From a virus (Duplodnaviria > Caudoviricetes): DNA of 64,000 bases. The stretch lies in the IMG/VR virus record IMGVR_UViG_3300028833_000057, positions 32,001-96,000 of that record. One strand, 5' to 3'. Positions 36,664-59,910 of this stretch are shown piece by piece; the first letter of the stretch is position 1; each line of letters opens with the position of its first letter. Below the pieces are notes generated by a model. The model searched no databases and had not been told where the DNA came from. It saw nothing but the letters and a program-made list of their open reading frames with translations. A program made the position numbers and the translations under genes.

Positions 36664-36734
36664 AAAATTTCCTATGTTATCACATTTTAATATATAAATA
36701 ATCTAATGGACTGATGTCCATTAGATTATAGAAT

Positions 36735-38037: not shown

Positions 38038-38562
38038 TCAGATTTCATTTATACTCTTAATAAATAAAGCATCTTTATCATTAAAATGATTAAATATCCA
38101 TTTTGCTTTATATGCTTTAGCTTCATGATTATTTAATCCAGGATTATAATCATAAATAATATTTCTAATTCCTGCATCTAATAATTGGATTGCGCAAGCT
38201 GCACATGGATATGCAGTCACTACACATATTAAAGATGGAAAATAATAATTATGCCATCTATAACGCATACTATTTAATGCAGAAATTTCTGCATGAGTAA
38301 CTATTTCTCTTTTATTAAGAGTAACGCCGTTTCCGATATCAACATCCTTCTTCTCCCAAATAGAAGAAAAAGAAGAGTCGCATGAAAGTCTAATCGGGAG
38401 TATATTGAACCCTCTGGAAATACGATTTCCATTAGGATCCAATATACTACACCCGATTTGGACTATTTTATCTTCAGACACTTGTTTAGCCAAGGTCTTC
38501 AGCTCGTTCATTTCATCAAGCAGCTTTCTTTTTAGAGATAGTGAAAAGTTCATTGTCTTCAT
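38038..38562 (-). CDS. dCMP deaminase (cytidine/deoxycytidylate deaminase family)
   Basis: HAE and PCAAC zinc motifs, GFN motif; start may be 38511. Confidence 0.88.
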   Translation of the reverse strand: MKTMNFSLSLKRKLLDEMNELKTLAKQVSEDKIVQIGCSILDPNGNRISRGFNILPIRLSCDSSFSSIWEKKDVDIGNGVTLNKREIVTHAEISALNSMRYRWHNYYFPSLICVVTAYPCAACAIQLLDAGIRNIIYDYNPGLNNHEAKAYKAKWIFNHFNDKDALFIKSINEI

Positions 38563-39547
38563 AATTGAAAGTTACGGAAACAAGATCTTTCTCCTTCTCT
38601 AATTCTGCATTATTTAATGCAGCCAAACGCTGAAGATAAGGAATCATAAGGTTAGATACTCTAGGATTGGTTGCCAAGAACATTCTCACCCAATCATTAA
38701 GGGTACGGGCAGAAACTTCTCCAATCATATCCTTAATATTTTCGAATATCGCCTTAATATTAGTCGTAGAATTAAGTTCTACAGTTCCACGAGTAATATG
38801 ATAAAGGAATCTGCAGAAGCTCATGTCTGAATCTTTAAAATTATTCGTATCGAGAACTTTATCTCCATAATACGCAATCTTGCCTTCAGTATGCAAGTTA
38901 TCAACTTCATTAAGAGCCATGTTTGCCAAACGCTTGTTATCTACTGGCATGTCTTCCACCTTTAGGACAGTTAGAACGTTCTTAATTATATCTAATCTTT
39001 CTAAAGTAATATCTACATTATCTGTAATTAATGCAAGAATTGCAGGATAATACTCATGTGTAGATTCTCTTGAATAATGCGCTAATTCTGCAAGTATATC
39101 TGCAGACAATGCAGTATCCGTACCATCATACATATTAAGTATCATAAATCCATTAATAGAACGCGCATTAGATGCTATAAATTCAGTTATTAGTATCATC
39201 ATGAAAGCTAAGATATCATATGTATCACAGCCTTCAAAAAACGCTTCTCTATTTGCATATTCAATTTCTTCATATGTAAAATAATCCTTCATATTATCAT
39301 TCATTACCATTGCAGTACATAAACGATCATATACTTCAGGATTTTTAGGCATAAGTTCATCATCAAAAAATTCTGTCAATAAGGCATTTGTATTAAGATA
39401 AATGAACTTTTCCGACGGATCTCTATAGAGTAAATTGAGGCACTCATTCTCAATAACATTCTCAGTATTATCAATAATGCGTGCCGCCAATTTCTCTTTA
39501 TATAAACCCATCGCAATTACGCCATTCATAATAGAATGGAGATTCAT
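38516..39547 (-). CDS. hypothetical protein downstream of JAB
   Basis: 343-aa helical acidic ORF starting 3 nt after the JAB stop. Confidence 0.75.
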   Translation of the reverse strand: MNLHSIMNGVIAMGLYKEKLAARIIDNTENVIENECLNLLYRDPSEKFIYLNTNALLTEFFDDELMPKNPEVYDRLCTAMVMNDNMKDYFTYEEIEYANREAFFEGCDTYDILAFMMILITEFIASNARSINGFMILNMYDGTDTALSADILAELAHYSRESTHEYYPAILALITDNVDITLERLDIIKNVLTVLKVEDMPVDNKRLANMALNEVDNLHTEGKIAYYGDKVLDTNNFKDSDMSFCRFLYHITRGTVELNSTTNIKAIFENIKDMIGEVSARTLNDWVRMFLATNPRVSNLMIPYLQRLAALNNAELEKEKDLVSVTFNYEDNELFTISKKKAA

Positions 39548-39550
39548 GAT

Positions 39551-40246
39551 TTACCAGTACCATGCACGTCTGGGTTTGATTTTCTTCTTCTTAGATTTCT
39601 TGTTCCAATTAGCAGTACCACCATAGTAACTACCGTAGTAATTACGACCATAAAGCTGATCATAATTATAACCAGTAGAAGTGTAGCCATAGTCTTTCCA
39701 AGAAACCTTTTCTTTGAATAATTCTTCAGTTGCGCCATTTTCAGCAGCTAAAGCTTTAGCAGCTTTAAGCCGTTGCATAAATGTTGTCGCGTCTAAATTT
39801 TCTGCACACTTTACGTCTGCAGGTATATGTACAAATGAACCATCTGCAATCTTGATAGTAATAACACCATCAGGTGTTTGACCACCATCAAGGAAGATAA
39901 ATGATACATCAAAATCTTTATTAACGTATTCCCAGTCAGTTCCTGAGAATGAACGACAGCCGCTCGGATGCCTATGACATGCAGCATTGTAAATCTGCTT
40001 ATCAGAAGCATACTCATCAAAGGCAATGCTTGCAGCAGTAACATTCTGCTTAGGCATTTCCCAGACTTCTGGAGCAATGTTAGCTGTTAAATTTTCTAAA
40101 TCTATATCTGCACTTAAGAATAAACCATATTCTTGACCATGACTAAAATCGCAAAATGCTTGCATGGTTCCCAGAATATCCATCGGCACTAAAATTGTGC
40201 CACGCTTGAAATACTTGTCGCCAGTTTCTAATGCGTACTTTCCCAT
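39551..40246 (-). CDS. JAB/MPN+ (JAMM) metallo-isopeptidase
   Basis: E (GQEYG) followed by HRHPSGCRSFSGTD, an exact HxH-x7-S-x2-D motif; Tyr/Gly-rich then basic C-terminal tail. Confidence 0.88.
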   Translation of the reverse strand: MGKYALETGDKYFKRGTILVPMDILGTMQAFCDFSHGQEYGLFLSADIDLENLTANIAPEVWEMPKQNVTAASIAFDEYASDKQIYNAACHRHPSGCRSFSGTDWEYVNKDFDVSFIFLDGGQTPDGVITIKIADGSFVHIPADVKCAENLDATTFMQRLKAAKALAAENGATEELFKEKVSWKDYGYTSTGYNYDQLYGRNYYGSYYGGTANWNKKSKKKKIKPRRAWYW

Positions 40247-40261
40247 GAATCTTGTTCCTTT

Positions 40262-40294
40262 AAAAAAGAAAGCCGTAGGGGTTTCCTACGGCTT
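40262..40294 (-). terminator. intrinsic terminator between Ubl and JAB genes
   Basis: AAGCCGTAGG-AAACC-CCTACGGCTT then TCTTTTTT on the minus strand. Confidence 0.8.
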
Positions 40295-40312
40295 AGAGTT
40301 CAACAGCAGAGA

Positions 40313-40813
40313 CTAGGCGTTGAAAATTGCCGGTCTAATGACCAGGGTGTCGCCATCCTGGATTTCAGACGGAGCAATGGACTGACCGTTGCGGTACAAG
40401 TCAGCCTTGTTGATACGGTTAGAACTCATGAGGCGGTGCATTTCAGCCACGACATCTTCGGTGTTGGCACCGGTGATATCGGCTTCAGTCTGAAGCGTTG
40501 CGCCAGAGCTCATGATCTGCACATGAACATGCAGACCCTGAGAAGCGGCAACTGCGCTGGAACGAACAACGGTAGAAGTCGTTGCAGCAACGGCTTCAGC
40601 AGCAGTGTCCTTTTCCTGATAGGTACCAGAGATACCACCCGGACGGGACACGGTCAGAGCATCACGCACTGCCTTCACACGAGTAGCCTTCGTGACGATC
40701 AACGTCCACGAAGCGTTCAACTTTTCTGCAACCTGCTTATTGGTCAGGTGCGAGTTCCAAGTTTCGATAAATTCATCATTATCGAGCTGAGCCAAAGAGG
40801 TCTTCTGAGCCAT
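40313..40813 (-). CDS. ubiquitin-like (beta-grasp) protein with N-terminal HTH-like domain
   Basis: C-terminal LYRNGQSIAPSEIQDGDTLVIRPAIFNA fits the ThiS/MoaD NG..DGD.V.I.P pattern; N-terminal EFIETWNSHLTNKQVAEKLNAS is HTH-like; lies between E1 and JAB. Confidence 0.7.
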   Translation of the reverse strand: MAQKTSLAQLDNDEFIETWNSHLTNKQVAEKLNASWTLIVTKATRVKAVRDALTVSRPGGISGTYQEKDTAAEAVAATTSTVVRSSAVAASQGLHVHVQIMSSGATLQTEADITGANTEDVVAEMHRLMSSNRINKADLYRNGQSIAPSEIQDGDTLVIRPAIFNA

Positions 40814-40848
40814 CTTTTACTTCCTTTAAGTTTGTTAGGTTGTGAGTT

Positions 40849-41847
40849 TTAAGATGCAAATTGTGCTAAGAGTCCTTCGCACTTAGCATCCTTAAGAGAT
40901 TCACCCGTCGGTTGATTCACCGGGATGAATTTACTGCGAAATCCAAATCTATAATAATTCTTATCTATGTTGCCTTCAATTACAGGAGTAGATAATATCT
41001 GCTGTACATCGTTAGCAAATAATGCTTGAGCATAGGGTCCTAGTCTGTGCTCAAATACTATATCATTCTTCACATGAGAATTCACTTTATAATATAAAAG
41101 TGAACTTTCATCCAACTCAATACTTTTATCATCTGTAACAAACTTAAAGGCATCATCAAGCAATCCAGCAAGTCTTTCAACTCGGTCAATAACCATCAGC
41201 TTACCTACTACTAAATTGTTGACGGCTAAGCTAAGTCTAGATTTTGCACAGTGTTTAAGATACCTTTTCCAAATAAGTTCACCCACAGACGTATCAGCAA
41301 GAATAGGTGCTACGTTAATAATATAGTCAAGCACCGAAACATCTGCGAGAATTATGTCTTTAACAAATTGACGAATCTCGCTGAACATTTCCAGACATAC
41401 TCCAAATGCATCTGGATTTTTCCATCCATAATTATCACTTGTAGTAAATAGGACTAATGTTTTTGCAGGATCTGTCTGAATATCTTCAGAAGCAGAGATA
41501 ATAAGCGCCGTTAAAGCTTCCCTATACTTAATGCACAGAGCAGCAAATAATACTTTCTCATATTCTTCGTGTTCTGAAGTAAATGTAACTACTTCATAGT
41601 TTTCACTATCAAGAATACCGTCATCGAACTTTTCCCTATACAAGATAACATTAGGGATAAATTCCAGCATACTCTTAAATACATGAATGAATGAACTTGC
41701 AATCTGTACATATGCGGTCATATTACCTTCAAAGGTATTATTATCGCTATACAGTTGGTTTCTAAGTGTGTTATAAAGAGGAGCAAAGTCGTTTGTTATA
41801 CGACTTGTAAGCTCATCTTCTTGTATTAAAACATTTACTACAGCCAT
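40849..41847 (-). CDS. hypothetical protein in Ubl operon
   Basis: 332 aa; TAATG-coupled to ThiF, GGAGGT RBS. Confidence 0.8.
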   Translation of the reverse strand: MAVVNVLIQEDELTSRITNDFAPLYNTLRNQLYSDNNTFEGNMTAYVQIASSFIHVFKSMLEFIPNVILYREKFDDGILDSENYEVVTFTSEHEEYEKVLFAALCIKYREALTALIISASEDIQTDPAKTLVLFTTSDNYGWKNPDAFGVCLEMFSEIRQFVKDIILADVSVLDYIINVAPILADTSVGELIWKRYLKHCAKSRLSLAVNNLVVGKLMVIDRVERLAGLLDDAFKFVTDDKSIELDESSLLYYKVNSHVKNDIVFEHRLGPYAQALFANDVQQILSTPVIEGNIDKNYYRFGFRSKFIPVNQPTGESLKDAKCEGLLAQFAS

Positions 41848-42560
41848 TATACCTCCACAATAGCTTCATTGATAACTTCTTCGAGGTTAATAATGATCTT
41901 AGTGGTTTTCTTGATCTTTCTACCCTCACCGCAGATCCAAGAAGCAGGGAACTTCTTAAGAATTCCAGCAAGGATTTCGCAGACCATTGCAGGCGGTATA
42001 TAGAAGCTTGGTGTAACTTCATAGCCAGACTGAACATTTACAGAAAGTGTCTTCCATACGCCTTCAGTCGGGTTAAAAGTGATACACATGATATTACCAC
42101 CGTTGTAAGACAGTTTCATATCAATCTGTTCGAACATAACACCTGCATCAAGTACGTCACGACAGTCAATGACAATCGTTTTATTACGCATTCTTGCATC
42201 TGAATATGTACTAGGTGTTTTAAATACCGCCTGTACATTATCAGGTTGTGTTCCTTCATCAGCAGCTTCGTTAAGCGGTTCTGCAATCAATTCATCAAAA
42301 TTACTTACTCTTTCTTTCTTTGTAGAAACACGAGTTTCCATCGTTCTTTTACAAAGTTCTTTAATCACATCTACTTTATACTTGTTAATGGAGCTAATAG
42401 GAACAGGAATTCTGTTCATATTAGAAATCTCCATAATGTCATCATCCATGATATACATGGCTGTATTTCTATCAATAATTTCGTCGAGCATTCCAATGGA
42501 AAGAGGAATATTACCACCAATTCCACCTGCTCCGAGTACTACGATTCGCTTGATATCCAT
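41847..42560 (-). CDS. ThiF/MoeB/E1-family adenylyltransferase
   Basis: VVLGAGGIG (GxGxxG), DDDIMEISNMNR, KYKV and VIDCRD motifs. Confidence 0.92.
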   Translation of the reverse strand: MDIKRIVVLGAGGIGGNIPLSIGMLDEIIDRNTAMYIMDDDIMEISNMNRIPVPISSINKYKVDVIKELCKRTMETRVSTKKERVSNFDELIAEPLNEAADEGTQPDNVQAVFKTPSTYSDARMRNKTIVIDCRDVLDAGVMFEQIDMKLSYNGGNIMCITFNPTEGVWKTLSVNVQSGYEVTPSFYIPPAMVCEILAGILKKFPASWICGEGRKIKKTTKIIINLEEVINEAIVEV

Positions 42561-42564
42561 AGGA

Positions 42565-43401
42565 TCATCCTAAGTAAGAATGTGGTTTAAACATATCTTT
42601 CCTTCCGTAAATACTTCCTTCAGGAGAGAAATGGAATTCATCGCCATTATTATTGTAAAATTTTCTATTTTCAGAATATGCAGATGTCATGTTGACACCT
42701 TCCATCAAGGTAATAATATCTGATATGTGCAACTTGTTAAGGATAGTAGATCCAGCAAGAGTACCCATACAGATCTTTCCACTTTCGTATGCCACATTAG
42801 GATGCTTCAAGATATGATCACCCTGTTCATCCCAGTATGCATATGCTACAAAACTCATATTTTCAAGTTTGCTAGCAGAACCTGTAGAGACACGAATACC
42901 AACACTACGCATAGTGTGTTCTTTATCTTTACGAATTCCTTTAGGGCCGTCAAATATGCAATCAAACAATTGTGCATGATTACGGTCATCTAAAGATGCA
43001 TAGATACGCTTCCAGTGTACAGGATGCCTTAGCGTGAATACCAAGAAATCTGAAGCTTTTCTAATAATCTTAATGACTGGACACTTTGTATCAGAAGCTG
43101 CCCATTCATTATATTCTGCAATATCCGCATCATTAAATGCCCTGATGCCACTGTTATGGCCACCATTATTATTGCTATTTTGAATACGTTCTCGCATAAT
43201 TCTAGGAACAATATGCCCTAGAGCCTTATGCTGCTTTTCAGCCATAGATTCACAAGATATCAGAAATGGCCCACTACTTATAGACACTGATCCATAAATT
43301 TCGTTGCCATCAACTTCATTTCTAAATGTTCCACAATCTTCACGATTATTATTCGTGTCTATTGCAGAACTAAATTGGGATAAAAAGTCTCTAATTTCCA
43401 T
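42565..43401 (-). CDS. prokaryotic E2/UBC-like protein
   Basis: LKHPNVAYESGKICMG matches the UBC active-site HPN..G.IC signature; GAGGAG RBS before MEIRD (43401), overlapping the upstream stop. Confidence 0.75.
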   Translation of the reverse strand: MEIRDFLSQFSSAIDTNNNREDCGTFRNEVDGNEIYGSVSISSGPFLISCESMAEKQHKALGHIVPRIMRERIQNSNNNGGHNSGIRAFNDADIAEYNEWAASDTKCPVIKIIRKASDFLVFTLRHPVHWKRIYASLDDRNHAQLFDCIFDGPKGIRKDKEHTMRSVGIRVSTGSASKLENMSFVAYAYWDEQGDHILKHPNVAYESGKICMGTLAGSTILNKLHISDIITLMEGVNMTSAYSENRKFYNNNGDEFHFSPEGSIYGRKDMFKPHSYLG

Positions 43402-44020
43402 CGTCAAGGATCTCCTCAACAGTTGTTTCAAAGTCTTTATACCTACTAAAATACGGCATAAGATTCTCCATAATGTTGGTGGTGACACCCATCTTAAAGA
43501 GTTCATAAGAGAGCATGGTATTATTATCATGACGAATATTTCTATTCACAATGAAATACACCATAAGCAAATCTCTAATATACGATCTTATGCTTACAAC
43601 ATTATCTTCTTCTGGAAGTTTTACATGTTTCGGGTCATTACAAAAGTGAATACCACTTTTAAGGAAAGTGTAATATTCTTTGTATACCGGGATCTTGGAT
43701 TGATTCCAAAATTCTTCAGCACGATCTTCTGGAATAATAATTACGTCACCAGAAAATTTCCGGTCTGCAGCGTAATGTTTAAAGTCTGGGCGTAGATCTG
43801 CAAGATTATACTCCATTCCACGAGCATAGATCTTATTCATCTCCACAAAATCTTTTTCTACAAGATTAATATTTTCTTCATTAATAATTCTAATTAATTT
43901 CTTAACCCCAACCATTACCAATGGAAGAAGGAAACGATGTCCGGATGTCTGAAGATACGATACAGAATCCGGAATTTCTATGCCAGGACATCTGTCCTGT
44001 CTGTCGTTAACGGAAATCAT
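43391..44020 (-). CDS. hypothetical protein, first gene of Ubl operon
   Basis: 209 aa; AAAGGAG RBS; TATATTAAA promoter at about 44049-44057. Confidence 0.8.
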   Translation of the reverse strand: MISVNDRQDRCPGIEIPDSVSYLQTSGHRFLLPLVMVGVKKLIRIINEENINLVEKDFVEMNKIYARGMEYNLADLRPDFKHYAADRKFSGDVIIIPEDRAEEFWNQSKIPVYKEYYTFLKSGIHFCNDPKHVKLPEEDNVVSIRSYIRDLLMVYFIVNRNIRHDNNTMLSYELFKMGVTTNIMENLMPYFSRYKDFETTVEEILDDGN

Positions 44021-44109
44021 TTTGATTTCTCCTTTATAAGATACATGTTTTAATATAATGATGATATTATCATAATATGGAACTTCTGAATGTAAGTAGG
44101 AGAATACCT

Positions 44110-46205: not shown

Positions 46206-46928
46206 TTAGTTCCAGTCAACCCATATCTTACGACGGTTGACACTAAGATGCATACTATTACGAATCTTCTCAAGAAGTTCAGTACGCTTAGATTCAGCCT
46301 CTTCAAATGTTCCAAGGCTTAGTTCTATATCAGACATACTTGTATTAATATTTGAGAATACACGCCTAAATCCAAGAATATCTAATTTTACATCACAGAG
46401 ACAAAGTTGTTTAATAATCTCTAATAGACCTGGATGAAATTCTTGGAAATCACTATGAGATACCTTTAATTTAACACAGATCTTTCGACCCATTCCAATA
46501 GCAGGATTAGGCATAATCCTAACCTTATTAGGTGGAACTATTTCTATAGTCGTAGGCACTCTAGTATAGTCCATAATTTCTTTCTGCATAAATGTCAAAA
46601 GATATTCAAAAGGACATACCGAGTATGTACGGTCATAGAATGTATCACCAGTACCTAGACCATTCAAAGACACGATCATTTCGGCACCAAGAAGCTGTGT
46701 AGGAGTATTAATATAGTATAAGCCCTGATCCTTTCCAACCTGATCTTTATCAATATCAATAATGTAATAAATAAATTTAGGGAAATATAAACTTAGAGTC
46801 TTTAGCGATTCATCTTTAATAACTTTAGCGATTGCATCATTATCAAGCTCAAGATCTCTACATGCAGCACCTAGACGTGCCTTAATATGGTTTACAAGAT
46901 AAGAAGTACTTAACCAAGCTTCTGCCAT
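46206..46928 (-). CDS. putative neck / head-completion protein (T4 gp13-like)
   Basis: YLVNHIKARLGA...LELD...SLKTLSLYFP N-terminal pattern and IIKQLCLCDVK..LG..R C-terminal pattern; GAGGT RBS before MAEAW. Confidence 0.55.
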   Translation of the reverse strand: MAEAWLSTSYLVNHIKARLGAACRDLELDNDAIAKVIKDESLKTLSLYFPKFIYYIIDIDKDQVGKDQGLYYINTPTQLLGAEMIVSLNGLGTGDTFYDRTYSVCPFEYLLTFMQKEIMDYTRVPTTIEIVPPNKVRIMPNPAIGMGRKICVKLKVSHSDFQEFHPGLLEIIKQLCLCDVKLDILGFRRVFSNINTSMSDIELSLGTFEEAESKRTELLEKIRNSMHLSVNRRKIWVDWN

Positions 46929-47011
46929 AATAACCTCATTATAGTATAACAAATTTATTGTTTTCCATATACAAATTCTGAAAAAAAAAATACCAAGCAA
47001 AGTTGGTATTT

Positions 47012-49616: not shown

Positions 49617-50384
49617 ATGCCATCTTCTCAAGCTGAAATATTTTTGATTAATACTTCTGCTAGTCAGGCTAAACCTTCGATTATTAGACAAACTGATAAA
49701 GAAATTGAGTTTAGAACAATCTGGCAGCATGGTAATGTATTAAACCGTAATAATAAGATTTATCCATCTGACATTATTTGGAACGCTGCGCAACAGGCTC
49801 CTATTCAGGAACAGCTAAAGCGTAGATGCTGGTATGGTGAAGCTAACCATCCGATGAGTCCTTCTATTGAAAGACAGTTGTATACTGATATGCATAATGT
49901 CTCTCATACAATTTTATCTTTTGAAAGAGAAGGCGATATCTTTAAAGGTAATGCTCTTACTTTTGGTTCTGCTATGGGGCCATCTATGTATGCTGCTATT
50001 GATCAGGGTGGCATTATTAGCTTCTCTCTTCGTGGTTTGCATAAGTTAGTTAGAGATCCTAATGACCAACGTAGAATGTTAGTTAAAGATCTCCGCATTT
50101 TTTGCTATGATTGGGTCACATTCCCGTCTCATGAAGATGCACATATGATCCCAGCTAATGAATCTGCTAAGATCTTTGAAAAGAGAATTCCTAAGGAACT
50201 CATTAATACCGTGATGGCTAGTGAAAATGCTGGTATTCTTGAACAGTATGAAGACTTCCTTGATGAAGAAATTAAGGATACTTCTATTGAAGATAATAGC
50301 TTAATTCTAAAGTCTGCTCATAATACTTTGAATATTAAGCTAAAGAATAGAATTACTAAAGATATTCTTAATGAATTTTTCTAA
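49617..50384 (+). CDS. prohead (capsid maturation) protease, T4 gp21-like
   Basis: NRNNKIYP, WYGEANHP, VSHTI, SFSLRG and YDWVTFPS motifs; late promoter AACT-N6-TG at 49583-49594. Confidence 0.88.
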   Translation: MPSSQAEIFLINTSASQAKPSIIRQTDKEIEFRTIWQHGNVLNRNNKIYPSDIIWNAAQQAPIQEQLKRRCWYGEANHPMSPSIERQLYTDMHNVSHTILSFEREGDIFKGNALTFGSAMGPSMYAAIDQGGIISFSLRGLHKLVRDPNDQRRMLVKDLRIFCYDWVTFPSHEDAHMIPANESAKIFEKRIPKELINTVMASENAGILEQYEDFLDEEIKDTSIEDNSLILKSAHNTLNIKLKNRITKDILNEFF

Positions 50385-50418: not shown

Positions 50419-51303
50419 TTATCTTTTTTGGTATATTGGCTTATATGGTAAATCTCTTGTCTTAAGTAATTGTAAAACATTATCATAGCTTTTACCAGAT
50501 TCTTTGGACATTTGTTTTACTGTTTTATCTGGACTATACCATGTAAGATCTGAATTACGAACCATGCGTACACGCTTATATGGTAGATTAAGGCGTATTA
50601 ATGCATTTCTAATGCATCCTGCTTTGACACCGCTTTGCTTAGCCATTTCAGGAACAGTTTTATTGGCATCATACCACCAAGATAAATCATCATAATTCAA
50701 TGGATCTTTTATTATACCTTGTAGATTATACTTATGAGCTATCGTCCTTACATGTTTCTCACTTATGCATAACGTTTTAGCGATAATATAAGCAGGCTGA
50801 CCTTGCATCTTTATGATTTTATCAGCTAAATCTTTTGATTTAGCATCTTTAATAGATTGCTTTTTCTTGAAATATTCGTCAGATAATCCACTGGATATTA
50901 TTATTTGCCTTATGCTTTCATGAGATAATCCTGCTTTTTCTGCCATTTGGCGCAGAGATAATGTAGGATCATACCATGATGGCTTAGACAATATTTTATG
51001 ATGAACTTCTTTTTTATATGGCAATTTAAGTTCATTCAAGATTGTATATATCGCAGAAGTATACGTTCCAGATATCCTTGCCATTTGGCGAACAGTAAGC
51101 TTTTTATCATACCAGTCTTTCAAATTGGAATCTGCTATTTGTCTTACCTTTTTATAAGGTAAATTTTTGGTTATTAATGTATTATAGATAACCATAGGCT
51201 TTTTACCAGCAGCCTTAGCCATTTCTCTGACTGTCAACTCTGGTGAATACCATATAGGTATTTTTGATGAAACTCTATGATGAATTCGGTTTAAATCTTT
51301 CAT
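50419..51303 (-). CDS. tandem HTH-repeat protein (about 6 repeats)
   Basis: Repeats of WY...T..EM...SG....I...L....LPYK; AAGGAG RBS. Confidence 0.75.
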   Translation of the reverse strand: MKDLNRIHHRVSSKIPIWYSPELTVREMAKAAGKKPMVIYNTLITKNLPYKKVRQIADSNLKDWYDKKLTVRQMARISGTYTSAIYTILNELKLPYKKEVHHKILSKPSWYDPTLSLRQMAEKAGLSHESIRQIIISSGLSDEYFKKKQSIKDAKSKDLADKIIKMQGQPAYIIAKTLCISEKHVRTIAHKYNLQGIIKDPLNYDDLSWWYDANKTVPEMAKQSGVKAGCIRNALIRLNLPYKRVRMVRNSDLTWYSPDKTVKQMSKESGKSYDNVLQLLKTRDLPYKPIYQKR

Positions 51304-51400
51304 AATGGCTCCTTGTTAAAATTATTAAACCATTATTTAATATAAGCAAATTCATAAGAAATTTACAGAAAAATAAAAGACCATACGAAAGTATGGTCTT

Positions 51401-51898
51401 TTATACTGCTTCTCTATTTTCTAATTCCAAAATATAATCTGGTGGAGGATAGAGTGCTTTATATTGCGGTGATGCAAATATTTCTTGCTCTATATCATTC
51501 TTAACTTCTAAGAATATATGTAAGGCTACATGAATATTCTCAAATTTCTTTTTATATTTATATGGATTATGTTTATATTTGTCAGGTATGAATACATTAT
51601 CTTTTATAAATATTAGTAAGAAAGATTCTTTGATAGAATCAGGTAAAGTCCTGAATTCCAATCTATCTGTAGCCTTATCAAGATCTTCATCATAAGATTT
51701 ATAAAAGAAGTCTTCAGAAGATCTAGCTTCAGAAAATATCTCATATACTCTATCAATGACTATATTATTAAATAATTTCATTTCATATTCATCATCTAGG
51801 TTCCAAGCTCTATAATAGCTCTTTCTAACTTCAGGTAGACCATCGCTCTTAGCCATTTCCAAGAGAATATGCTTCATATAGTCTTCTAACATAAACAC
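51401..51898 (-). CDS. hypothetical protein
   Basis: 165-aa ORF in early cassette. Confidence 0.7.
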   Translation of the reverse strand: MFMLEDYMKHILLEMAKSDGLPEVRKSYYRAWNLDDEYEMKLFNNIVIDRVYEIFSEARSSEDFFYKSYDEDLDKATDRLEFRTLPDSIKESFLLIFIKDNVFIPDKYKHNPYKYKKKFENIHVALHIFLEVKNDIEQEIFASPQYKALYPPPDYILELENREAV

Positions 51899-51919
51899 AC
51901 CTACCTTTATGGAAAAGTA

Positions 51920-52210
51920 CTATTTCCAAAATATTAAATAGTGTATATAATTTTTATCTTCTTCCGGTAAATAAAATTCATATTTACAAATTAATGAAAA
52001 TCCTGCAGCTGATAGTTCTTCAATAAACTTACTTTGTTTTGCCTTAGATACATCTACTTCAATTTGTTTTTCACATCTGCAAATTGCTTGTGTGACTTTA
52101 TGTTCGACATATCTGATAAGTGCATTATATGGTTTATCGGCTGGATCTACAGCACTCGCTTTAAGTTCATCATATATTTTAGTTAAAGGCTTCATGCCAA
52201 AATACCCCAT
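51920..52210 (-). CDS. hypothetical protein
   Basis: 96 aa, overlapping upstream gene end. Confidence 0.65.
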   Translation of the reverse strand: MGYFGMKPLTKIYDELKASAVDPADKPYNALIRYVEHKVTQAICRCEKQIEVDVSKAKQSKFIEELSAAGFSLICKYEFYLPEEDKNYIHYLIFWK

Positions 52211-52545
52211 TTATTGTGTAAAAGTTCGTTCATTCTTAAGCCAAAGATTCTATGTAAATTCTCTATTTTGCCATTAGAAGCATACTTCCAAACCTCATGG
52301 CTTAATTTATCCATTTTATCATGGATCTCTTCGTATTCCATTTTATTTAAAGGCTTAGTATCTAAAATATGACCCCAATGCCTAGCTTGCATTCTAAGTA
52401 ATTCACAGTAGTTTGATCTACTACGTTCAATATATTCTTTAGATGATATTAATTTGGTTTCGAGAGTATACAACATATGTCTACAGTCTAGAACTGTCTC
52501 GCAAGTAGCAAATGCATGCTCTAGTTCTTCATCAGTGAATAACAT
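52192..52545 (-). CDS. hypothetical protein
   Basis: 117 aa; AGGAG RBS; TATATTAAA promoter. Confidence 0.75.
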   Translation of the reverse strand: MLFTDEELEHAFATCETVLDCRHMLYTLETKLISSKEYIERSRSNYCELLRMQARHWGHILDTKPLNKMEYEEIHDKMDKLSHEVWKYASNGKIENLHRIFGLRMNELLHNKWGILA

Positions 52546-52618
52546 AATTGCTCCTAATTTCAGTATTTAATATAAAAAATAAAACGGTATTCCATATGGA
52601 ATACCGTCTTATTTGGTT

Positions 52619-52873
52619 TTAGGATTCGTCTTTTCTTTTAAGTATAACTTCAGACTCATGTGTATCATCTAAGCACTTCTTTTCGCCATCATATCGTGCC
52701 ATTTCAGCAAGATGGAGATTAAGCTCAAAAAGTTTATCATACTGGCGTTTCTGGCTATTTAGTAAGGTTTTATAAATATCGGCCCATCTTTTCCAGTAAA
52801 TTGTACTCATTAGTAATAATGCTGCTGTAAATGCAAGGAAGATAATTATAATAACTAATTGTAAATTATTCAT
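52619..52873 (-). CDS. small membrane-anchored protein
   Basis: N-terminal TM helix followed by coiled coil; start MNNLQ overlaps upstream stop. Confidence 0.7.
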   Translation of the reverse strand: MNNLQLVIIIIFLAFTAALLLMSTIYWKRWADIYKTLLNSQKRQYDKLFELNLHLAEMARYDGEKKCLDDTHESEVILKRKDES

Positions 52874-53381
52874 TTTGTTTTTCTTCTTTTTCAAATTTTT
52901 CTTTTAGTCTAAGGTAAGTCTTATACTCTGTTGCTCTTTTTCTTTCTTCATTCGCTTTATCAAGCATATTTTTATGGCGTTGTCTCTCTGCTTCTACACG
53001 CTCAAGAGTATCAATCCATCGTTTCTTAATTTCTAATAATTCTATATTACTATATTTCGAAAAGCGAGATATCATTAAATACATATCTTCATCGTCAGAA
53101 CTATCTATGTCTATATTATCATCTGCACTGGTGACATGTACTATAAAATAGTCTTCGCCTTTGGTAACTGTTTTCTTTAAGCGCTTAAAAGCACGAATTT
53201 CATCTAATGTAGTACTATCTGCTTGGCTAATACCTAACCCTGCCAACCATTGATCTATTATCATACTATATTTTACAAATATATCATCTGCTGTCATAAT
53301 ATTGGTGATATATTTTATTTTTTCTTCAAGAGCTTTATATGCTTCTTGAAATAATTTTTCTATTTCTGCAAAATCTCGCAT
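52866..53381 (-). CDS. hypothetical protein
   Basis: 171 aa, coupled in operon. Confidence 0.7.
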   Translation of the reverse strand: MRDFAEIEKLFQEAYKALEEKIKYITNIMTADDIFVKYSMIIDQWLAGLGISQADSTTLDEIRAFKRLKKTVTKGEDYFIVHVTSADDNIDIDSSDDEDMYLMISRFSKYSNIELLEIKKRWIDTLERVEAERQRHKNMLDKANEERKRATEYKTYLRLKEKFEKEEKQNE

Positions 53382-53827
53382 AGTAAGTAGTCCGGTTCAG
53401 TTAGTTTTATATATCCATCGTATCTATGGGCATCATCGCAATCACCCTTTGTGATACTCAAAGATGTTATTTCTTTAATACTGCTTAGAATTCTATCCTT
53501 TAAATATTTTGAAATTTGGCGATATTCAAAGTAGAAATTATCAGTACAATTATATGCTTTACTATCTACATCCAATCTAAATCCACCATCAAACGGAAGG
53601 AAGTTTATCCTATTCTCTGAAGCATAAGGCTTAGTTTTAAAATTAATAACAATTCTTATCTTCAGGAATTTTAAGACCCTGTCGCTATGTCCAGCAATGT
53701 AATCTTCTATATCTTTTATACACTTAGGAATTAGTTTGCATGTTTCGTCTACTTCTTTCTTTATCATCTCAAATCTTGTCTTATGCTTTTCTTTATAGTT
53801 TTCTACAAGCCTTTCTTCTATAGTCAT
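53360..53827 (-). CDS. hypothetical protein
   Basis: 155 aa; AGGAG RBS. Confidence 0.75.
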   Translation of the reverse strand: MTIEERLVENYKEKHKTRFEMIKKEVDETCKLIPKCIKDIEDYIAGHSDRVLKFLKIRIVINFKTKPYASENRINFLPFDGGFRLDVDSKAYNCTDNFYFEYRQISKYLKDRILSSIKEITSLSITKGDCDDAHRYDGYIKLTEPDYLLCEILQK

Positions 53828-53838
53828 ACTATCTCCTA

Positions 53839-54267
53839 TTAGTCACTATATAAACATTTTTGTACAACTTTATCGCCAAATCTTATTTCATTATCAAGCG
53901 GTGTTGGTGGTAATTCTATCCAGAATTCTATATCGTCACGTCGTATATCATTATGCTCATCATCAGTTAAATATGTATATACTGCACCATCACCGCCTTC
54001 ATCATTAAGACCAAAGCCTTCAATATGCTCGCCATCTTTATTAATTATAAGGAAATGATGTACATCCCATCCATCGATAGCATCATAGATATCTTCTTCT
54101 TTTTGTCTATGCCAAAACTTTTTAGCTAGCTCTTCTTTAAGTTCTTCTATAGCTTCTTTGACATCTTTATTATCTATTTTGAGATCGTCTACTTTAAATG
54201 TAACTTTATGCTCAGCATAAAATTCTCTAACAGACTTAGCTTCTCTAGTTGTAATTACAGTATGCAT
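53839..54267 (-). CDS. hypothetical protein (MHT-type paralogue)
   Basis: 142 aa; AAGGAGG RBS; promoter directly upstream. Confidence 0.75.
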   Translation of the reverse strand: MHTVITTREAKSVREFYAEHKVTFKVDDLKIDNKDVKEAIEELKEELAKKFWHRQKEEDIYDAIDGWDVHHFLIINKDGEHIEGFGLNDEGGDGAVYTYLTDDEHNDIRRDDIEFWIELPPTPLDNEIRFGDKVVQKCLYSD

Positions 54268-54293
54268 ATATCCTCCTTATGCTTAATTTCTTA

Positions 54294-54328
54294 TTTTAAT
54301 ATAAAAAATAAAAAGCCCCGAAGGGCTT
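54294..54328 (-). repeat. terminator+promoter cassette junction (AAGCCC-TTCG-GGGCTT...TATATTAAA)
   Basis: Same UUCG hairpin recurs near 56126, 60370 and 62011, with a one-mismatch copy near 59001. Confidence 0.8.
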
Positions 54329-54330
54329 GA

Positions 54331-54906
54331 TTATAATACCGCATGACTAAATTTTTTCTTAAAAGGTAAATTCCTATTCCTTAAATATCCATATATACAC
54401 TGTTCGGATAAACCAGACAGATAAGACATTTCGCTTAAATCTCTATCTGGAGAATACCATTTGCCTATTTCTATATCATGATCTTTTAATCTAAAATATT
54501 CTAACTTATGCTTATTTAAAAATGATTTAACATTAACCATAGGTATGCCTGACAAGAGACTCATTTCTTGTATCGTTAAATTCTTATTATAGAATTTAAT
54601 AAATTCATCGAATGAATACCTTTTAAATATATGATAACCTGACGGTCGTTGACATTTTTTATAATGCAATTTACTACTTCGCAATATATGATAAACCACA
54701 TCATAAGATAAACCAGATATAGCAGACATTTCATATATGGTTTTATTTTTATCGTACCATTCAGGTATTGATTTCTTTTTCTTATAGCTTTTACATTTTA
54801 AATTTAGTTTATTAAGATAATATGATATTGCGGTACGACATAATCCAGCTTTTTCAGACATTTCTCTTATAGTAAGCTCTGGATTATACCACTCTGGAAT
54901 ATCCAT
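54331..54906 (-). CDS. tandem HTH-repeat protein (4 repeats)
   Basis: IPEWY repeats; AGGAGGT RBS; colinear paralogue of 60387..60962. Confidence 0.8.
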   Translation of the reverse strand: MDIPEWYNPELTIREMSEKAGLCRTAISYYLNKLNLKCKSYKKKKSIPEWYDKNKTIYEMSAISGLSYDVVYHILRSSKLHYKKCQRPSGYHIFKRYSFDEFIKFYNKNLTIQEMSLLSGIPMVNVKSFLNKHKLEYFRLKDHDIEIGKWYSPDRDLSEMSYLSGLSEQCIYGYLRNRNLPFKKKFSHAVL

Positions 54907-55009
54907 ATAAACCTCCTATGCTAATGATTTACGAATATTCATTATTTAATATATATCGCGGTATATAGAAAATACGAAAAATAAAAAAGCGGCATTCCAG
55001 CCGCTAGAA

Positions 55010-56041
55010 TTATTTTGATCTGGCAAATACATGCTTAAAAAGAACTTCTGGATGGTTGATGTATAACCACCTTTCCATATTTTTATATCCGATACGGCAG
55101 ATCTTGGCGAATTTTTCAATCGTCATATCCTTATTCCAGAAAGATGCAAATTTATCTGGAACTTCAGAAAGATGATCTTTGAGTCTTCGCTTTTTCTTTA
55201 TCCAAAGTTTATCTGGGTGGTACTTTCTGAGCCAGTCTCTTACTGACGTAGGATTTGCCCCAATAAGATCACTATATTCTTTAATAGACATACCATCGTG
55301 CCAATGCTTCTGAAAATTTTCTTCGCTATTTTTATAGTTTCTATTACCATATCTTTTTTCTGGATGATATTTTGACATCCATTTATATACAGATACGACA
55401 CTAGCCCCTATAATATCGGCATATTCTTCATAAGTCATGAGGTCATTCCAGTATTTCTGAAAATTTTCTTCACTATTAATAACATCGGCCTTACCCTTTT
55501 TAAATTTTAAATTATGTCTTCTTAATAGTGCACCAAGAGTACGAAGTTTAATTCTAGATTCCTTTGCCATTTGATCAAGTGTTTTATTTGGATGATACCA
55601 CTCGCCAACCTCAAAAGTATTTTTATCTTTTACTTTCTTAAAAGGTAAATTTCTAGAAGTTAGAATCTTTCTAACTTGGCTATTGCTTAACTCAGATATC
55701 TTAACCATTTCCAAGATAGTACAATCCTTGTTATACCACTCAGGAATATCTTGTAGCGACTCTTGGCGAATATCATCAGCAGTCTTAAATTTTAAATTAA
55801 GATGCTTTAATAACGGATATATAGTGGTAACTCCTATCCCAGTCTCTTGAGACATTTGCGTAACGGTTTTATTGGGATCATATACTCGCTTAATATCTTC
55901 GCAGTGTTTATCTATTAGATGCTTATACTTTAGATTTCTTTTAAATATAAATTGTCTTATATTATGCTCAGAAATTCCAGCGCTTTCTGCCATCTGTCTA
56001 ATGGTTTTATTGGAATCATACCATTCTGGTAAAATGTTCAC
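55010..56041 (-). CDS. tandem HTH-repeat protein (7 repeats)
   Basis: Four PEWY-type plus three FQKYW-type repeats; AAGGAG RBS before GTG at 56041. Confidence 0.8.
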   Translation of the reverse strand: MNILPEWYDSNKTIRQMAESAGISEHNIRQFIFKRNLKYKHLIDKHCEDIKRVYDPNKTVTQMSQETGIGVTTIYPLLKHLNLKFKTADDIRQESLQDIPEWYNKDCTILEMVKISELSNSQVRKILTSRNLPFKKVKDKNTFEVGEWYHPNKTLDQMAKESRIKLRTLGALLRRHNLKFKKGKADVINSEENFQKYWNDLMTYEEYADIIGASVVSVYKWMSKYHPEKRYGNRNYKNSEENFQKHWHDGMSIKEYSDLIGANPTSVRDWLRKYHPDKLWIKKKRRLKDHLSEVPDKFASFWNKDMTIEKFAKICRIGYKNMERWLYINHPEVLFKHVFARSK

Positions 56042-56077
56042 GATTAGGCTCCTTGTTAGATGCAATAACATTATCGC

Positions 56078-56141
56078 ATCATTATTTAATATATGCTGTG
56101 GTACATAGAAAATACGAAAAAATAAAAGCCCCGAAGGGCTT
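56078..56141 (-). repeat. terminator+promoter cassette junction
   Basis: About 45 bp nearly identical (one mismatch) to 56478-56522, followed by the GCCCCGAAGGGC hairpin. Confidence 0.8.
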
Positions 56142-56172
56142 GATATAGAACTAATATTTTATAAAATATCTT

Positions 56173-56442
56173 TTACAGTAGGAAGGATGGCAACGCATTA
56201 GATTCAATCTTATAAGATATTTTTTGTGAATTTGGTGAATAGCATTTCATTACCGTCATCTCTGAGGATGAACTTAGTTTCTTGCATTTTATCTCTATTT
56301 CTATACAACAATTGTTATTGAAACTTACATTAGCTGAAACGATAGATATATCATTCCCAAGATTCTTTACTTCTTCTATAAATGCTTTCTTTTCTTGAAG
56401 AATGTCATTCGTAGCTTTAAGTAAAGGATTATTTTTGTTCAT
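56173..56442 (-). CDS. hypothetical protein
   Basis: 89 aa; AAGGAG RBS; single-gene cassette. Confidence 0.7.
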   Translation of the reverse strand: MNKNNPLLKATNDILQEKKAFIEEVKNLGNDISIVSANVSFNNNCCIEIEIKCKKLSSSSEMTVMKCYSPNSQKISYKIESNALPSFLL

Positions 56443-56607
56443 AATGGCTCCTTTAATAGATACAACGGAATTGTTGTATCATTATTTAATATATGCTGTG
56501 TTACATAGAAAATACGAAAAAAAAGACGTAGGTTTTGAAACCCCCTACGTCCATGCCACTTCCGTTCCTAAGGGCATTCTCTGCTCTGACCCATATTGGA
56601 AACTTGA

Positions 56608-56811
56608 TTACTCAAGCAGAGCAATGGTTTCTTGAGGAAGTCTACAGTTATAAAGCTCATCAGTCTTAAGGATTCCGCAATACTTGTAGAACCACCAGAA
56701 GATCTTTTTATATACATATACTATATGATAAATTCTACGGTCAATTTCATGGCTATCGTCAATATACCACTTATATTTACTGGCTATTGGTTGTATTCTC
56801 GGAATCTTCAT
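56608..56811 (-). CDS. small hypothetical protein
   Basis: 67 aa; AAGGA RBS. Confidence 0.6.
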   Translation of the reverse strand: MKIPRIQPIASKYKWYIDDSHEIDRRIYHIVYVYKKIFWWFYKYCGILKTDELYNCRLPQETIALLE

Positions 56812-56830
56812 TGTAGACTTCCTTAAAGAT

Positions 56831-57406
56831 TTATTCGTCTTTAGTATGTAAGATAAAACTTACTGTATTAAGATACTGTGATACTGTAGGTAAGCCTATA
56901 ATGCTACGGATAATCTGCATGAAGTTACAAATGTCTTTAAGACCTACAACTGCACGGAATCCTTCGTGAGCACTATTTTTGGATTCGAAGATTAACCCAT
57001 GGCAACTATTCTTGCTATTTTCTACGGAAATTCTTAAGTCACCATACTGTAAAGGTGCAGGTTCTTTAATTTCCCTGATATCTATACAATCTAATTGCTT
57101 ACAATAATCAAATAGATTATAGAAGAATGTCTCATTAGAAGCCCAAGGGATTTCCATAAGCATTGCAGGACCTTCTTCTGCATTATTGATAAAGCATAAG
57201 GCATCATATGTATCATCGCCTTTGGCAAATGCCAAAGAACAGTTAGTGGGTACATACCATTCTTTATCTTTATATATCATATCATATGCAAATTGCGTAA
57301 AGTCTACGCCTTTATTGCCATCAGGTTGAACTGATTTAGTATTATAAATATAACCAAGCCTGAAGTTACAGGTCTTGGCTCTTTGCGTGTTTTGTCTTGT
57401 TGTCAT
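56831..57406 (-). CDS. hypothetical protein
   Basis: GAGGT RBS before MTTRQ; ORF track begins at 57427. Confidence 0.65.
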   Translation of the reverse strand: MTTRQNTQRAKTCNFRLGYIYNTKSVQPDGNKGVDFTQFAYDMIYKDKEWYVPTNCSLAFAKGDDTYDALCFINNAEEGPAMLMEIPWASNETFFYNLFDYCKQLDCIDIREIKEPAPLQYGDLRISVENSKNSCHGLIFESKNSAHEGFRAVVGLKDICNFMQIIRSIIGLPTVSQYLNTVSFILHTKDE

Positions 57407-57539
57407 TAATAACCTCATCTGTTTCATTTAAAGTCTTATTACATTTTTCTATAACACTATCTCCAAAAATTATCTTTTCAAATATAATATAGAATTTCTC
57501 TAATAAGTAATCTATAGGATTATAATAACTTCTAGCCAT
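57366..57539 (-). CDS. small hypothetical protein
   Basis: MARSYY start immediately follows the upstream stop. Confidence 0.45.
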   Translation of the reverse strand: MARSYYNPIDYLLEKFYIIFEKIIFGDSVIEKCNKTLNETDEVINDNKTKHAKSQDL

Positions 57540-57540
57540 T

Positions 57541-58329
57541 TTAGAATCCCGTTTGTGCGGATATATAGTGAATCGGTTTACCCTTAGAGGTTCCAACGAT
57601 TTCTACATAGTAGTCTTCATATTCTTGGCTATATTTAATATATGCAAAGCCTGTAAAGTCTTCTATGACAGTACCTTGGGCCTTTGTAGGTCTCTTCTCT
57701 ATATACCATGCGTTTACATCACAGACACAGACCTTAGCTGCATCTGCACAAAATTCTCCAACTGGTTTCTTGGTATCGTAATCAAACAGAGTACAAGACC
57801 AATCACCATATACTGTAGTTTGGAGAATGAAGCATTCTAAGTTTGCATCATATTCGTCTATATCTTCCTTAAGGATATAACATGGATCTGTAATAGCTAT
57901 ATCCTTATGGGAGAATTCTTGATATTTATCAGTTAGACCTTTCTTACGGTCTTCCTGAAGCACTTCATATCCAATCATTTTCCAATAGGTAGCCGCTGCA
58001 TCATAAATATGCCATTTAAGGAATTCTTCTGGATTCCAAGAATAATAGGTAGTATCTTCCTTAGTAACAAGATGTTTGCTATGCCTTAATTCCGTTTGAG
58101 GAACTTTTAAGGCAAGGTTCATACATTCGCTATATCTACGGAATAATTCTACATTTCCCAGCTTAAAATGAATGGGCTTTGCTAAATTCTTAGCTTCTTG
58201 AAATTCTTCTTTCTTTTCAGCATAATAGATATATCTCGGAACTGGCTTCCCTTCTTTCTCTAATCTTTCTCTAATTCTAGATTCTACACAGTTTGCCATA
58301 TCATATCCTATTTGACTGTAATGTGCCAT
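57541..58329 (-). CDS. hypothetical phage protein
   Basis: 262 aa; ITDPCY...YGDWSC...GEFCADAAKVCV motif-like segment; function unknown. Confidence 0.75.
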   Translation of the reverse strand: MAHYSQIGYDMANCVESRIRERLEKEGKPVPRYIYYAEKKEEFQEAKNLAKPIHFKLGNVELFRRYSECMNLALKVPQTELRHSKHLVTKEDTTYYSWNPEEFLKWHIYDAAATYWKMIGYEVLQEDRKKGLTDKYQEFSHKDIAITDPCYILKEDIDEYDANLECFILQTTVYGDWSCTLFDYDTKKPVGEFCADAAKVCVCDVNAWYIEKRPTKAQGTVIEDFTGFAYIKYSQEYEDYYVEIVGTSKGKPIHYISAQTGF

Positions 58330-58955: not shown

Positions 58956-59020
58956 AGATTCTCCGTGGATGTATTCGCTTAATTTAATATAAAAAAATAA
59001 AAGCCACGAAGGGCTTGATA

Positions 59021-59803: not shown

Positions 59804-59910
59804 CTTAAACCTCCTAAATGTTAATGTCTATGAATATCCATTATTTAATATATGAGAAGATAATTTTAAAGTACGAAAAAAAAAAGACCTACATTGTGTA
59901 GGTCTTTTAT

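Follow-up and report, generated by a model that had tools for sequence, protein, structure and literature searches.

A conserved operon encoding a putative ubiquitin-like conjugation and deconjugation system in a rumen jumbo phage

The stretch of DNA analysed here (the window; 64,000 nucleotides, nt) comprises bases 32001–96000 of the IMG/VR virus record IMGVR_UViG_3300028833_000057 (Caudoviricetes), and it carries an operon whose products resemble the parts of a ubiquitin-like (Ubl) protein-tagging system. The record is 267,826 bp long and 100% complete by CheckV, which bears out the description of the virus as a jumbo phage in an initial annotation. Seven open reading frames (ORFs), all on the minus strand, lie where that annotation had placed them and encode, in order, a conserved protein of 209 amino acids (aa; g209), an E2-like (conjugating) protein, a ThiF-type E1 (activating) enzyme, a second conserved protein (g332), the Ubl tag, a JAB/JAMM metallopeptidase and a third conserved protein (g343; Table 1). 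The genes had been called closely coupled, and this holds for most junctions, which are overlaps or gaps of at most 4 nt, but not around the tag gene, which is preceded by a spacer of 35 nt and followed by one of 66 nt. A single promoter-like motif, TATATTAAA, heads the run, as had been proposed, since the next minus-strand copy lies as far away as 36686–36694.

Table 1. Genes and other features of the operon and its downstream flank, in window coordinates
Feature	Position	Strand	Remarks
Promoter-like motif TATATTAAA	44049–44057	-	heads the operon
g209	43391–44020	-	209 aa; conserved protein, always first in the block
E2-like	42565–43401	-	278 aa; open frame 42565–43530
E1, ThiF-type	41847–42560	-	237 aa
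g332	40849–41847	-	332 aa; conserved protein
Ubl tag	40313–40813	-	166 aa
Terminator-like hairpin + U-tract	40260–40294 (hairpin 40270–40294)	-	10-bp stem with 6 GC pairs
JAB/JAMM metallopeptidase	39551–40246	-	231 aa
g343	38516–39547	-	343 aa; directly after JAB
dCMP/cytidine deaminase-like	38038–38562	-	overlaps g343 by 47 nt

All of the catalytic motifs quoted for these proteins in the initial annotation are present: HPNVAYESGKIC in the E2-like protein (residues 200–211), GAGGIGG and DDDIMEISNMNR in the E1 (residues 10–16 and 39–50), and E39...H91-R-H93-x7-S101-x2-D104 in the JAB peptidase. Six-frame translation of the genome gives 2,062 ORFs of 40 aa or more; two of the patterns, HxH-x7-S-xx-D and HPN-x(6-9)-C, each occur exactly once among them, in these two neighbouring genes. 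Residue shuffles gave on average 0.34 and 0.44 ORFs with the two motifs, respectively, and the tighter pattern HPN-x(4-7)-G-x-[IV]-C appeared in none of 200 shuffles.

The module is a conserved operon, found in this 268-kb rumen jumbo phage and in uncultured relatives, and the order g209-E2-E1-g332-Ubl-JAB is kept in every relative found, in line with the co-conservation foreseen at the outset. The full block is present in the window and in the contigs L002/L003, L004–L006, L011/L012 and L009/L010, which make up four further lineages; a fifth has it in part, L007 and L008 being partial, short contigs. The lowest identities to the window are 23% for the E2, 37% for the E1, 41% for the tag, 40% for the JAB peptidase, 27% for g209 and 17% for g332, and g343 and the deaminase-like gene follow the block where the contig continues. 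DNA near-identical to the window was found in sheep- and bovine-gut sequencing runs. No match was obtained by megablast and tblastn among 50,697 GenBank phage records, IMG/VR scans with the single E1 and E2 proteins returned no relatives, and an IMG/VR scan with a profile of the tag found only one other viral contig, that of L009. Similarly, a scan of 185,579 species genomes with an E1 profile detected no orthologue, returning only two generic matches to the N-terminal, nucleotide-binding part of ThiF. These sole cellular matches lie on contigs of metagenome-assembled genomes from Bacillales and Izemoplasmatales (L017, L018) and show 39–41% identity over residues 4–71.

The start of the 278-aa E2-like protein is backed by homologues of 257–286 aa and by identical gene calls in relatives. 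Its UBC-like core spans approximately residues 84–270, preceded by an N-terminal extension of about 83 residues, and the motif HPN(200–202)-x8-Cys211 is encoded at 42769–42804. P201, N202 and C211 are invariant in all aligned sequences, C211 being the sole invariant cysteine, and H200 is kept in seven of the eight. The family is very rare: a HMMER search run exhaustively over 1.84 billion representatives yielded only six relatives at E<=0.001. The hidden Markov model (HMM) of PF00179 (UQ_con) matched neither the genome nor the eight family members at E<=10, and the resemblance to that family is one of fold and motif only. A local HMM alignment of low significance (2onu, E 0.073) sets HPNV..G.IC against the active-site region of a Plasmodium E2.

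An AlphaFold model of the E2-like protein, built on an alignment of eight sequences, has a mean predicted local distance difference test (pLDDT) score of 72.8. A UBC fold had been predicted initially and is recovered at the level of this model, as the best matches in each of three structure libraries are UBC enzymes. In a Foldseek search of the PDB, nearly all of the top 50 matches are E2s, with a best E of 0.012 and template-modelling (TM) scores of 0.37–0.43 by target. With VIA-align, the top 26 of 48,161 chains are all E2s (Z 5.3–6.6 over about 110–135 residues), and the bacterial BubB (9eav_D, Z 5.3), the Bil E2 (Z 4.5) and Cap2 (Z 3.9) rank lower. The ESM Atlas search is headed by a cluster composed entirely (100%) of PF00179 (TM 0.56). 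The best structural matches are the eukaryotic E2s Pex4, UbcH7, Ubc9 and Ubc13, and I215L of African swine fever virus (7wlh) is matched with Z 5.6 and 20% identity. Past the active site, the model shows short strands where E2s usually have C-terminal helices, and the BFVD library of viral structures gave no convincing match to the model.

The E1 is a minimal, single-domain, putative adenylating enzyme of the ThiF type. It reaches E 1.7e-6 and 27.8 bits with Pfam ThiF, just below the cut-off of 28.1, and the orthologues in L007, L009 and L011 have precomputed ThiF matches. Its best PADLOC matches are the Cap2 'E1-E2' models (E 8e-6), and its best match in NCBIfam, below threshold, is ThiS adenylyltransferase. 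A profile of five sequences matches 22 E1-family sequences of the PDB over residues 4–99, led by MccB (4e-6) and the NEDD8 E1 UBA3 (2e-5), followed by PaaA, UBA1, SAE2 and UBA5. A cysteine follows the invariant stretch KLSYNGGNI at position 159, or at 158 in L009, the most distant lineage. Complex prediction for the E1 with the beta-grasp domain of the tag gave scores of 0.09 and 0.02 (mark 0.32), which weigh neither way on binding.

In the JAB peptidase, the motif H91-x-H93-x7-S101-xx-D104 is encoded at 39935–39976, and E39, H91, H93, S101 and D104 do not vary among nine sequences, whose identity goes down to 36%. Four of these nine match Pfam Prok-JAB, all below threshold (best E 0.006), and feature neighbours in the ESM Atlas include Prok-JAB clusters (0.94, 0.90). 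The Prok-JAB HMM found no match in the genome itself, and a search of PDB sequences with a JAB profile returned low-complexity noise only. The C-terminus (39551–39700) consists of a Tyr/Gly-rich low-complexity stretch and a basic KKKKIKPRRAWYW tail (KKKKIKPRRxWYW); the basic segment and a terminal aromatic W/F-W occur in most lineages, L009 excepted, and may serve in docking or localisation.

The tag combines an N-terminal, helical domain resembling a helix-turn-helix (HTH; approximately residues 1–66, 40616–40813), a disordered Ala/Thr/Ser linker (residues 70–91) and a C-terminal beta-grasp domain (approximately residues 94–166, 40316–40534) with the topology beta-beta-alpha-beta-beta-beta, ending in ...RPAIFNA. 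In the AlphaFold2 model (pLDDT 76), the C-terminal 73 residues match ubiquitin, SUMO, NEDD8, SAMP and MoaD, and the beta-grasp fold first proposed for this region is upheld at that level. Foldseek gave probabilities of 0.97–1.0 for these matches and of about 1 for ubiquilin, NEDD8, Caldiarchaeum ubiquitin, SUMO, MoaD and SAMP1, and VIA gave Z up to 7.9 with a root-mean-square deviation of 2.4 Å over 71 residues. In an alignment of 20 sequences, the tail reads RPAIF[NG]A or RPTIYAG, followed by nothing, by AV, MV, AK or KV, or by FAAL, so that 0, 2 or 4 extra residues come after a conserved terminal Ala or Gly. Some BilA homologues carry overhangs of 2–9 aa past the reactive Gly (bioRxiv 10.1101/2023.09.04.556158), and BilA of E. 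aridi is trimmed by BilC (PMC10557695). By analogy, the tail of the phage tag looks like the signature of a modifier made as a trimmed precursor.

The 66-nt spacer between the tag and JAB genes holds a terminator-like hairpin that was absent from the first account of the locus. In each of the five lineages checked (the window, L002, L004, L011 and L009), this position is occupied by a hairpin with a U-tract; the stems are unrelated in sequence, with z-scores of -2.9 to -4.2, and no space is left for a promoter ahead of the JAB ATG. Such a hairpin would act as an attenuator that holds the writer and tag above the eraser. At the other end of the operon, the motif TATATTAAA sits 28 nt upstream of the g209 ATG, and all five lineages have a TTATATTAA-type core 27–34 nt ahead of the g209 start. 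Within the window, TATATTAAA occurs in 24 copies against 6.3 expected, with a maximum of 11 in 100 shuffles. New here are this hairpin and the conserved promoter-like motif, together with an invariant tail of g332 and a motif of g209 that are described below.

Several prokaryotic Ubl systems invite comparison. Bil (BilABCD) is a bacterial ISG15-like anti-phage defence system (PMC10557695, bioRxiv 10.1101/2023.09.04.556158). As in Bil, there are separate genes for Ubl, E2, JAB peptidase and E1 and no recognisable E3; the tag has a single beta-grasp, and Bil tags can likewise carry an extra N-terminal domain (PMC11601603); and the reactive C-terminal residue is small, sometimes with a short overhang that the JAB removes. 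However, the operon is found on a lytic-type jumbo phage rather than in a host defence island, and its 237-aa E1 has one adenylation domain, whereas BilD is built as IAD-AAD-CYS and has a zinc site as well as a catalytic Cys domain. The E2 differs from BilB by its N-terminal extension and by the eukaryote-like motif HPN-x8-C, where BilB has the CEHH arrangement (Cys, Glu at +6, His at +8, His at +13); Cys211 is followed by MGTLAGSTILNKLH, with no Glu at +6 and no His at +8. Furthermore, the tag ends in Ala here and in Gly in one lineage only, three extra conserved proteins (g209, g332 and g343) are present, and there is no match to Bil components at the sequence level.

Bub (6E/DUF6527; PMC11601596) shares with the phage operon a minimal, homodimer-type E1 without a clear crossover-loop catalytic Cys, JAB active-site residues at nearly the same positions (H91, H93 and D104 in BubCD), Ubls with diverse N-terminal domains and, through BubB, a place among the structural matches of the E2. 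Bub systems form oxyester (Ser) intermediates and contain fused Ubl-E2, JAB-E1 or E2-E1 proteins and a DUF6527 serine protease (PMC11601596). In the phage, by contrast, all genes are separate, the nucleophile position of the E2 is an invariant Cys, and Pfam scans found no DUF6527 match. In type II CBASS (cyclic oligonucleotide-based antiphage signalling systems), the E2-E1 fusion Cap2 links the CD-NTase by its C-terminus to targets, from which the JAB protein Cap3 releases it (PMC10097602). The E1 domain has its best PADLOC matches in Cap2, substrate C-termini are Gly or Ala, the eraser is a JAB protein, and the invariant C-terminus of g332 recalls the conjugated CD-NTase tail. Unlike CBASS, the phage has unfused E2 and E1 genes and a dedicated beta-grasp tag, and PADLOC and Pfam scans found no CD-NTase, effector or other CBASS model beyond the Cap2 match of the E1 domain.

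The PRTRC cassette does not fit either, as the E1 reaches 15.9 bits with the PRTRC_ThiF equivalog TIGR03736 against a cut-off of 144.75 and no ParB match was found among the ORFs scanned. Sulfur-carrier systems (ThiS/MoaD with ThiF/MoeB) combine a Gly-Gly carrier with partner genes for sulfur transfer or synthases and have no E2. In the operon, the tag lacks a Gly-Gly end, an E2-like gene is always there, and the 18 neighbouring ORFs scanned gave no such partner. The HPN-x8-Cys motif and the UBC-like core are shared with the UBC E2s of eukaryotes, archaea and giant viruses (PF00179), from which the phage protein differs in its lack of an HMM match, its extra N-terminal region and the short strands after the active site. 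Phages of the lambda type are known to encode Ubl-fold and JAB domains (gpI and gpK), which act in tail assembly. Unlike that pair, which comes without E1 or E2, the operon holds a full writer and eraser set. It can be classed among the prokaryotic Ubl systems and outside the definitions of Bil, Bub and CBASS Cap2/Cap3, being set apart by the differing E1 architecture and E2 motif relative to Bil, the Cys E2 and the absence of fusions relative to Bub, and the lack of CBASS genes.

With gene anatomy, catalytic motifs, co-conservation and, at the level of models, folds established, the operon is likely to be a phage-encoded system for Ubl conjugation and deconjugation. The parts expected of a generic E1-E2-Ubl-JAB set are all found, namely an E1 adenylation domain, a UBC-fold E2 with its Cys (at model level only), a beta-grasp tag with a small terminal residue and a JAMM motif. 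The view first put forward, that the phage carries its own writer and eraser set, gains support from the UBC and beta-grasp models and from co-conservation. Moreover, four recognisable Ubl-system parts in one operon, with motifs that are kept and unique in the genome, make an assembly by chance very unlikely.

Several points weigh against conjugation. The tag ends in N-A, G-A or A-G (Asn-Ala here) and not in Gly-Gly. The E1 matches known E1s over residues 4–99 only, with MccB as the top PDB match, and has no strictly invariant Cys, like sulfur-carrier and peptide-adenylating relatives. The JAB protein itself matches no Pfam, PADLOC or NCBIfam model, the E2 matches none from Pfam, PHROG, PADLOC or NCBIfam, and three of the seven conserved proteins (g209, g332 and g343) have no assigned role. 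The E2 model is of medium confidence only, and its fold scores are modest, with Foldseek E of at least 0.012 and VIA Z of at most 6.6 in the range of common arrangements. Even so, three libraries agree with the HPN-Cys motif, and this makes the E2 assignment persuasive despite the modest single scores.

For a conjugation system of this kind, we infer the chemical steps, the direction of transfer and the targets as follows. The tag would have a C-terminal Ala or Gly (residue 166), either from the start or after trimming by the JAB peptidase, and the small E1 would adenylate its carboxylate using ATP. The tag would then pass to Cys211 of the E2 as a thioester, either directly from the adenylate or via the semi-conserved E1 Cys158/159. 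The HPN motif supports lysine aminolysis in eukaryotic E2s. The phage E2 would similarly transfer the tag to lysines of target proteins, and the JAB peptidase could also take it off again. Termination at the hairpin downstream of the tag gene may keep writer and tag more abundant than the eraser.

A quite unlikely alternative is that the C-terminus conjugated is that of g332, alone or besides the Ubl, following the logic of type II CBASS, with g332 as an effector or regulator primed by conjugation. Its extreme C-terminus, G[LS]L..FAS (last eight codons at 40852–40875), is invariant, FAS being identical in six lineages while the overall identity falls to 17–21%, and the codons beneath it differ synonymously, which indicates selection on the protein tail. 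The tail ends in a small residue after Phe-x, as does the tag (F-N-A or F-G-A), the g332 gene stands between those of the E1 and the tag in every lineage, and the Cap2 matches of the E1 point the same way. Against this, the operon has a genuine beta-grasp tag with a precursor-type tail, whose gene is one of the best conserved in the block, no signature of a nucleotidyltransferase or any other enzyme is seen in g332, and Ser is not documented as the terminus of an E1 substrate. The conserved tail could equally well be a docking peptide.

It is very unlikely that the operon serves as a sulfur-carrier or C-terminal-activation pathway acting on a small molecule or nucleotide, as in the ThiS/MoaD-ThiF/MoeB, CysO-Mec+, QbsE-QbsD and MccB/PaaA types, in which case the JAB would only expose the carrier C-terminus and the UBC-like protein would be non-catalytic or otherwise employed. 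The E1 would suit such a pathway, being minimal, of ThiF/MoeB size and without a strictly invariant Cys, with MccB and PaaA among its best solved sequence relatives and ThiS adenylyltransferase as its best sub-threshold NCBIfam match, and a nucleotide-metabolism gene, the dCMP deaminase-like one, is co-located and probably co-transcribed. Sulfur-carrier systems do without E2s (PMC10557695), however, and here a UBC-fold protein, with P201, N202 and Cys211 unvarying, is never missing; the tag is not Gly-Gly-ended and carries a 66-residue N-terminal domain. The initial annotation had noted that sulfur-transfer genes are missing nearby, and Pfam scans of the 18 neighbouring ORFs (32.4–50.4 kb) agree, giving no match to ThiG, MoaE or cysteine synthase and none to a sulfurtransferase or rhodanese. 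Finally, a superficial resemblance, with the operon a conserved phage module of unrelated function such as morphogenesis and only the ThiF-like enzyme genuine, is highly improbable: the E2 and JAB calls do draw on medium-confidence models, short motifs and sub-threshold HMM matches, and the module lies 2.5–5.6 kb from a divergent prohead protease in all long contigs, but four independently recognisable Ubl-system parts stand in one operon, with genome-unique motifs that are kept over deep divergence.

If a Ubl conjugation system is accepted, an extended version of it can be imagined, doubtful as it is at present, in which the phage tags offensively and early. Both the tag and g332 would be C-terminally activated, g209 would act as an E3-like relay or specificity factor, and the read-through terminator would set the ratio of writer to eraser. 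The tag could be placed on host defence, transcription or nucleoid factors or on the phage's own virion proteins, pre-empting Bil-type tagging by the host.

Prokaryotic Ubl conjugation has so far been characterised as host defence, in Bil, CBASS Cap2/Cap3 and probably Bub. A phage Ubl conjugation system is not mentioned in the jumbo-phage reviews PMC7824862 and PMC13282480, and full-text literature searches returned no paper describing one. If the conjugation reading is true, bacterial viruses, like eukaryotic viruses, would deploy their own protein-tagging machinery. The E2 family would have a eukaryote-type HPN-Cys active site with no detectable sequence kinship to known E2s, and the operon would offer a minimal E1 and three co-evolving partners, which could be new classes of E3, adaptor or substrate. 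The targets could expose a new route of host takeover or counter-defence. Offensive tagging, if true, would invert the logic of Ubl-based antiviral immunity and would be more elaborate than any bacterial system.

Early expression of the operon, proposed in the initial annotation, is plausible because its promoter-like motif resembles the early consensus of phage AR9, AAATATATATTAT, which is recognised by the virion RNA polymerase (PMC5312081), as in phiKZ/AR9-type phages, and because the genome has two beta'-like RNA polymerase genes. RNA polymerase beta' domain 2 is matched at two separate places outside the window (C1:5817–6230, minus strand, and C1:148874–148984, plus strand), which suggests that the phage has two multisubunit RNA polymerases, like jumbo phages of the phiKZ/AR9 type. 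Together with a prohead protease of the T4 gp21 type (S77) at 49617–50384, these matches mark a jumbo phage of the type that encodes its own multisubunit RNA polymerases.

In RNA libraries of sheep and bovine gut from three studies, contigs cover the operon, and in one sheep run two contigs cover 38301–44031; strand, level and transcript ends are not readable from such contigs. RNA contigs of two studies break off at 44031 and 44022, a short way downstream of the TATATTAAA motif; given these limits, this hints only weakly at a 5' end. Likewise, read-through at the hairpin between the tag and JAB genes is not proven by the contigs that span it, and 40245–40436 is uncovered in some runs. In one sheep-gut RNA library, the mean word depth of the operon contigs is 46 and 32, compared with 1–16 on both flanks, with contig boundaries at 44031, directly below the promoter-like motif, and at about 38301, within the deaminase gene.

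The partner proteins g209, g332 and g343 are probably specificity, E3-like or substrate components. The N-terminal motif NDRQ[DE]RC of g209 (residues 5–11; through G13, 43982–44008) holds its only invariant Cys, C11, and stays while identity falls to 27–30%. No lead for g209 came from Pfam, PHROG, PADLOC, NCBIfam, the PDB or the ESM Atlas, where the features of g209 are inconsistent. For g332, none came from Pfam, PHROG, PADLOC, NCBIfam or the PDB, and its Atlas model (pLDDT 0.33) is unusable. A comparison by hhalign of seven families, and of g332 with the tag, found no hidden paralogy and no second beta-grasp. The protein g343, which matches nothing in Pfam or PHROG, is encoded at the same place in L002, L004 and L011 with 24–49% identity. 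A genome-wide search for a degradation partner (AAA+, ClpP) found no ClpP and two weak AAA matches that are distant from the operon and unlinked to it.

The deaminase-like gene (Pfam dCMP_cyt_deam_1, E 2.8e-11; PHROG dCMP deaminase) keeps its position in L002, L004 and L011, and it is probably co-transcribed with the operon and likely outside the tagging machinery. In L011, it is followed by a gene for a patatin-like phospholipase. In the window, a 437-aa ORF comes next, and the nine-gene run ends at a strong hairpin at 36698–36729, a perfect 14-bp inverted repeat that is terminator-like on both strands, with the next TATATTAAA copy directly after it. Upstream of the operon and divergent from it lie a virion structural protein gene (PHROG 18911, 46206–47000) and the prohead protease gene, and the divergent layout of protease and operon is also seen in L008, L009, L010 and L011.

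The N-terminal domain of the tag gives weak HTH_24 matches in four of eight sequences (best E 0.009). Searched as a single sequence against its own genome, it has no paralogue, and a profile gave only weak matches. Its W-N/D..LT..Q-V-A-E-K stretch recurs weakly in several proteins at 50–60 kb of the window. A set of paralogous proteins is encoded there on the minus strand (50419–59827; for example 50419–51303, 54331–54906, 55010–56071 and 59024–59827), each with one to four copies of W-[YN]-D..LT..[QE]-M-A-E-K, which resembles the tag domain. Four of the ten best sub-threshold matches of the domain profile fall inside this 9-kb region, and many of its genes have TATATTAAA ahead of them.

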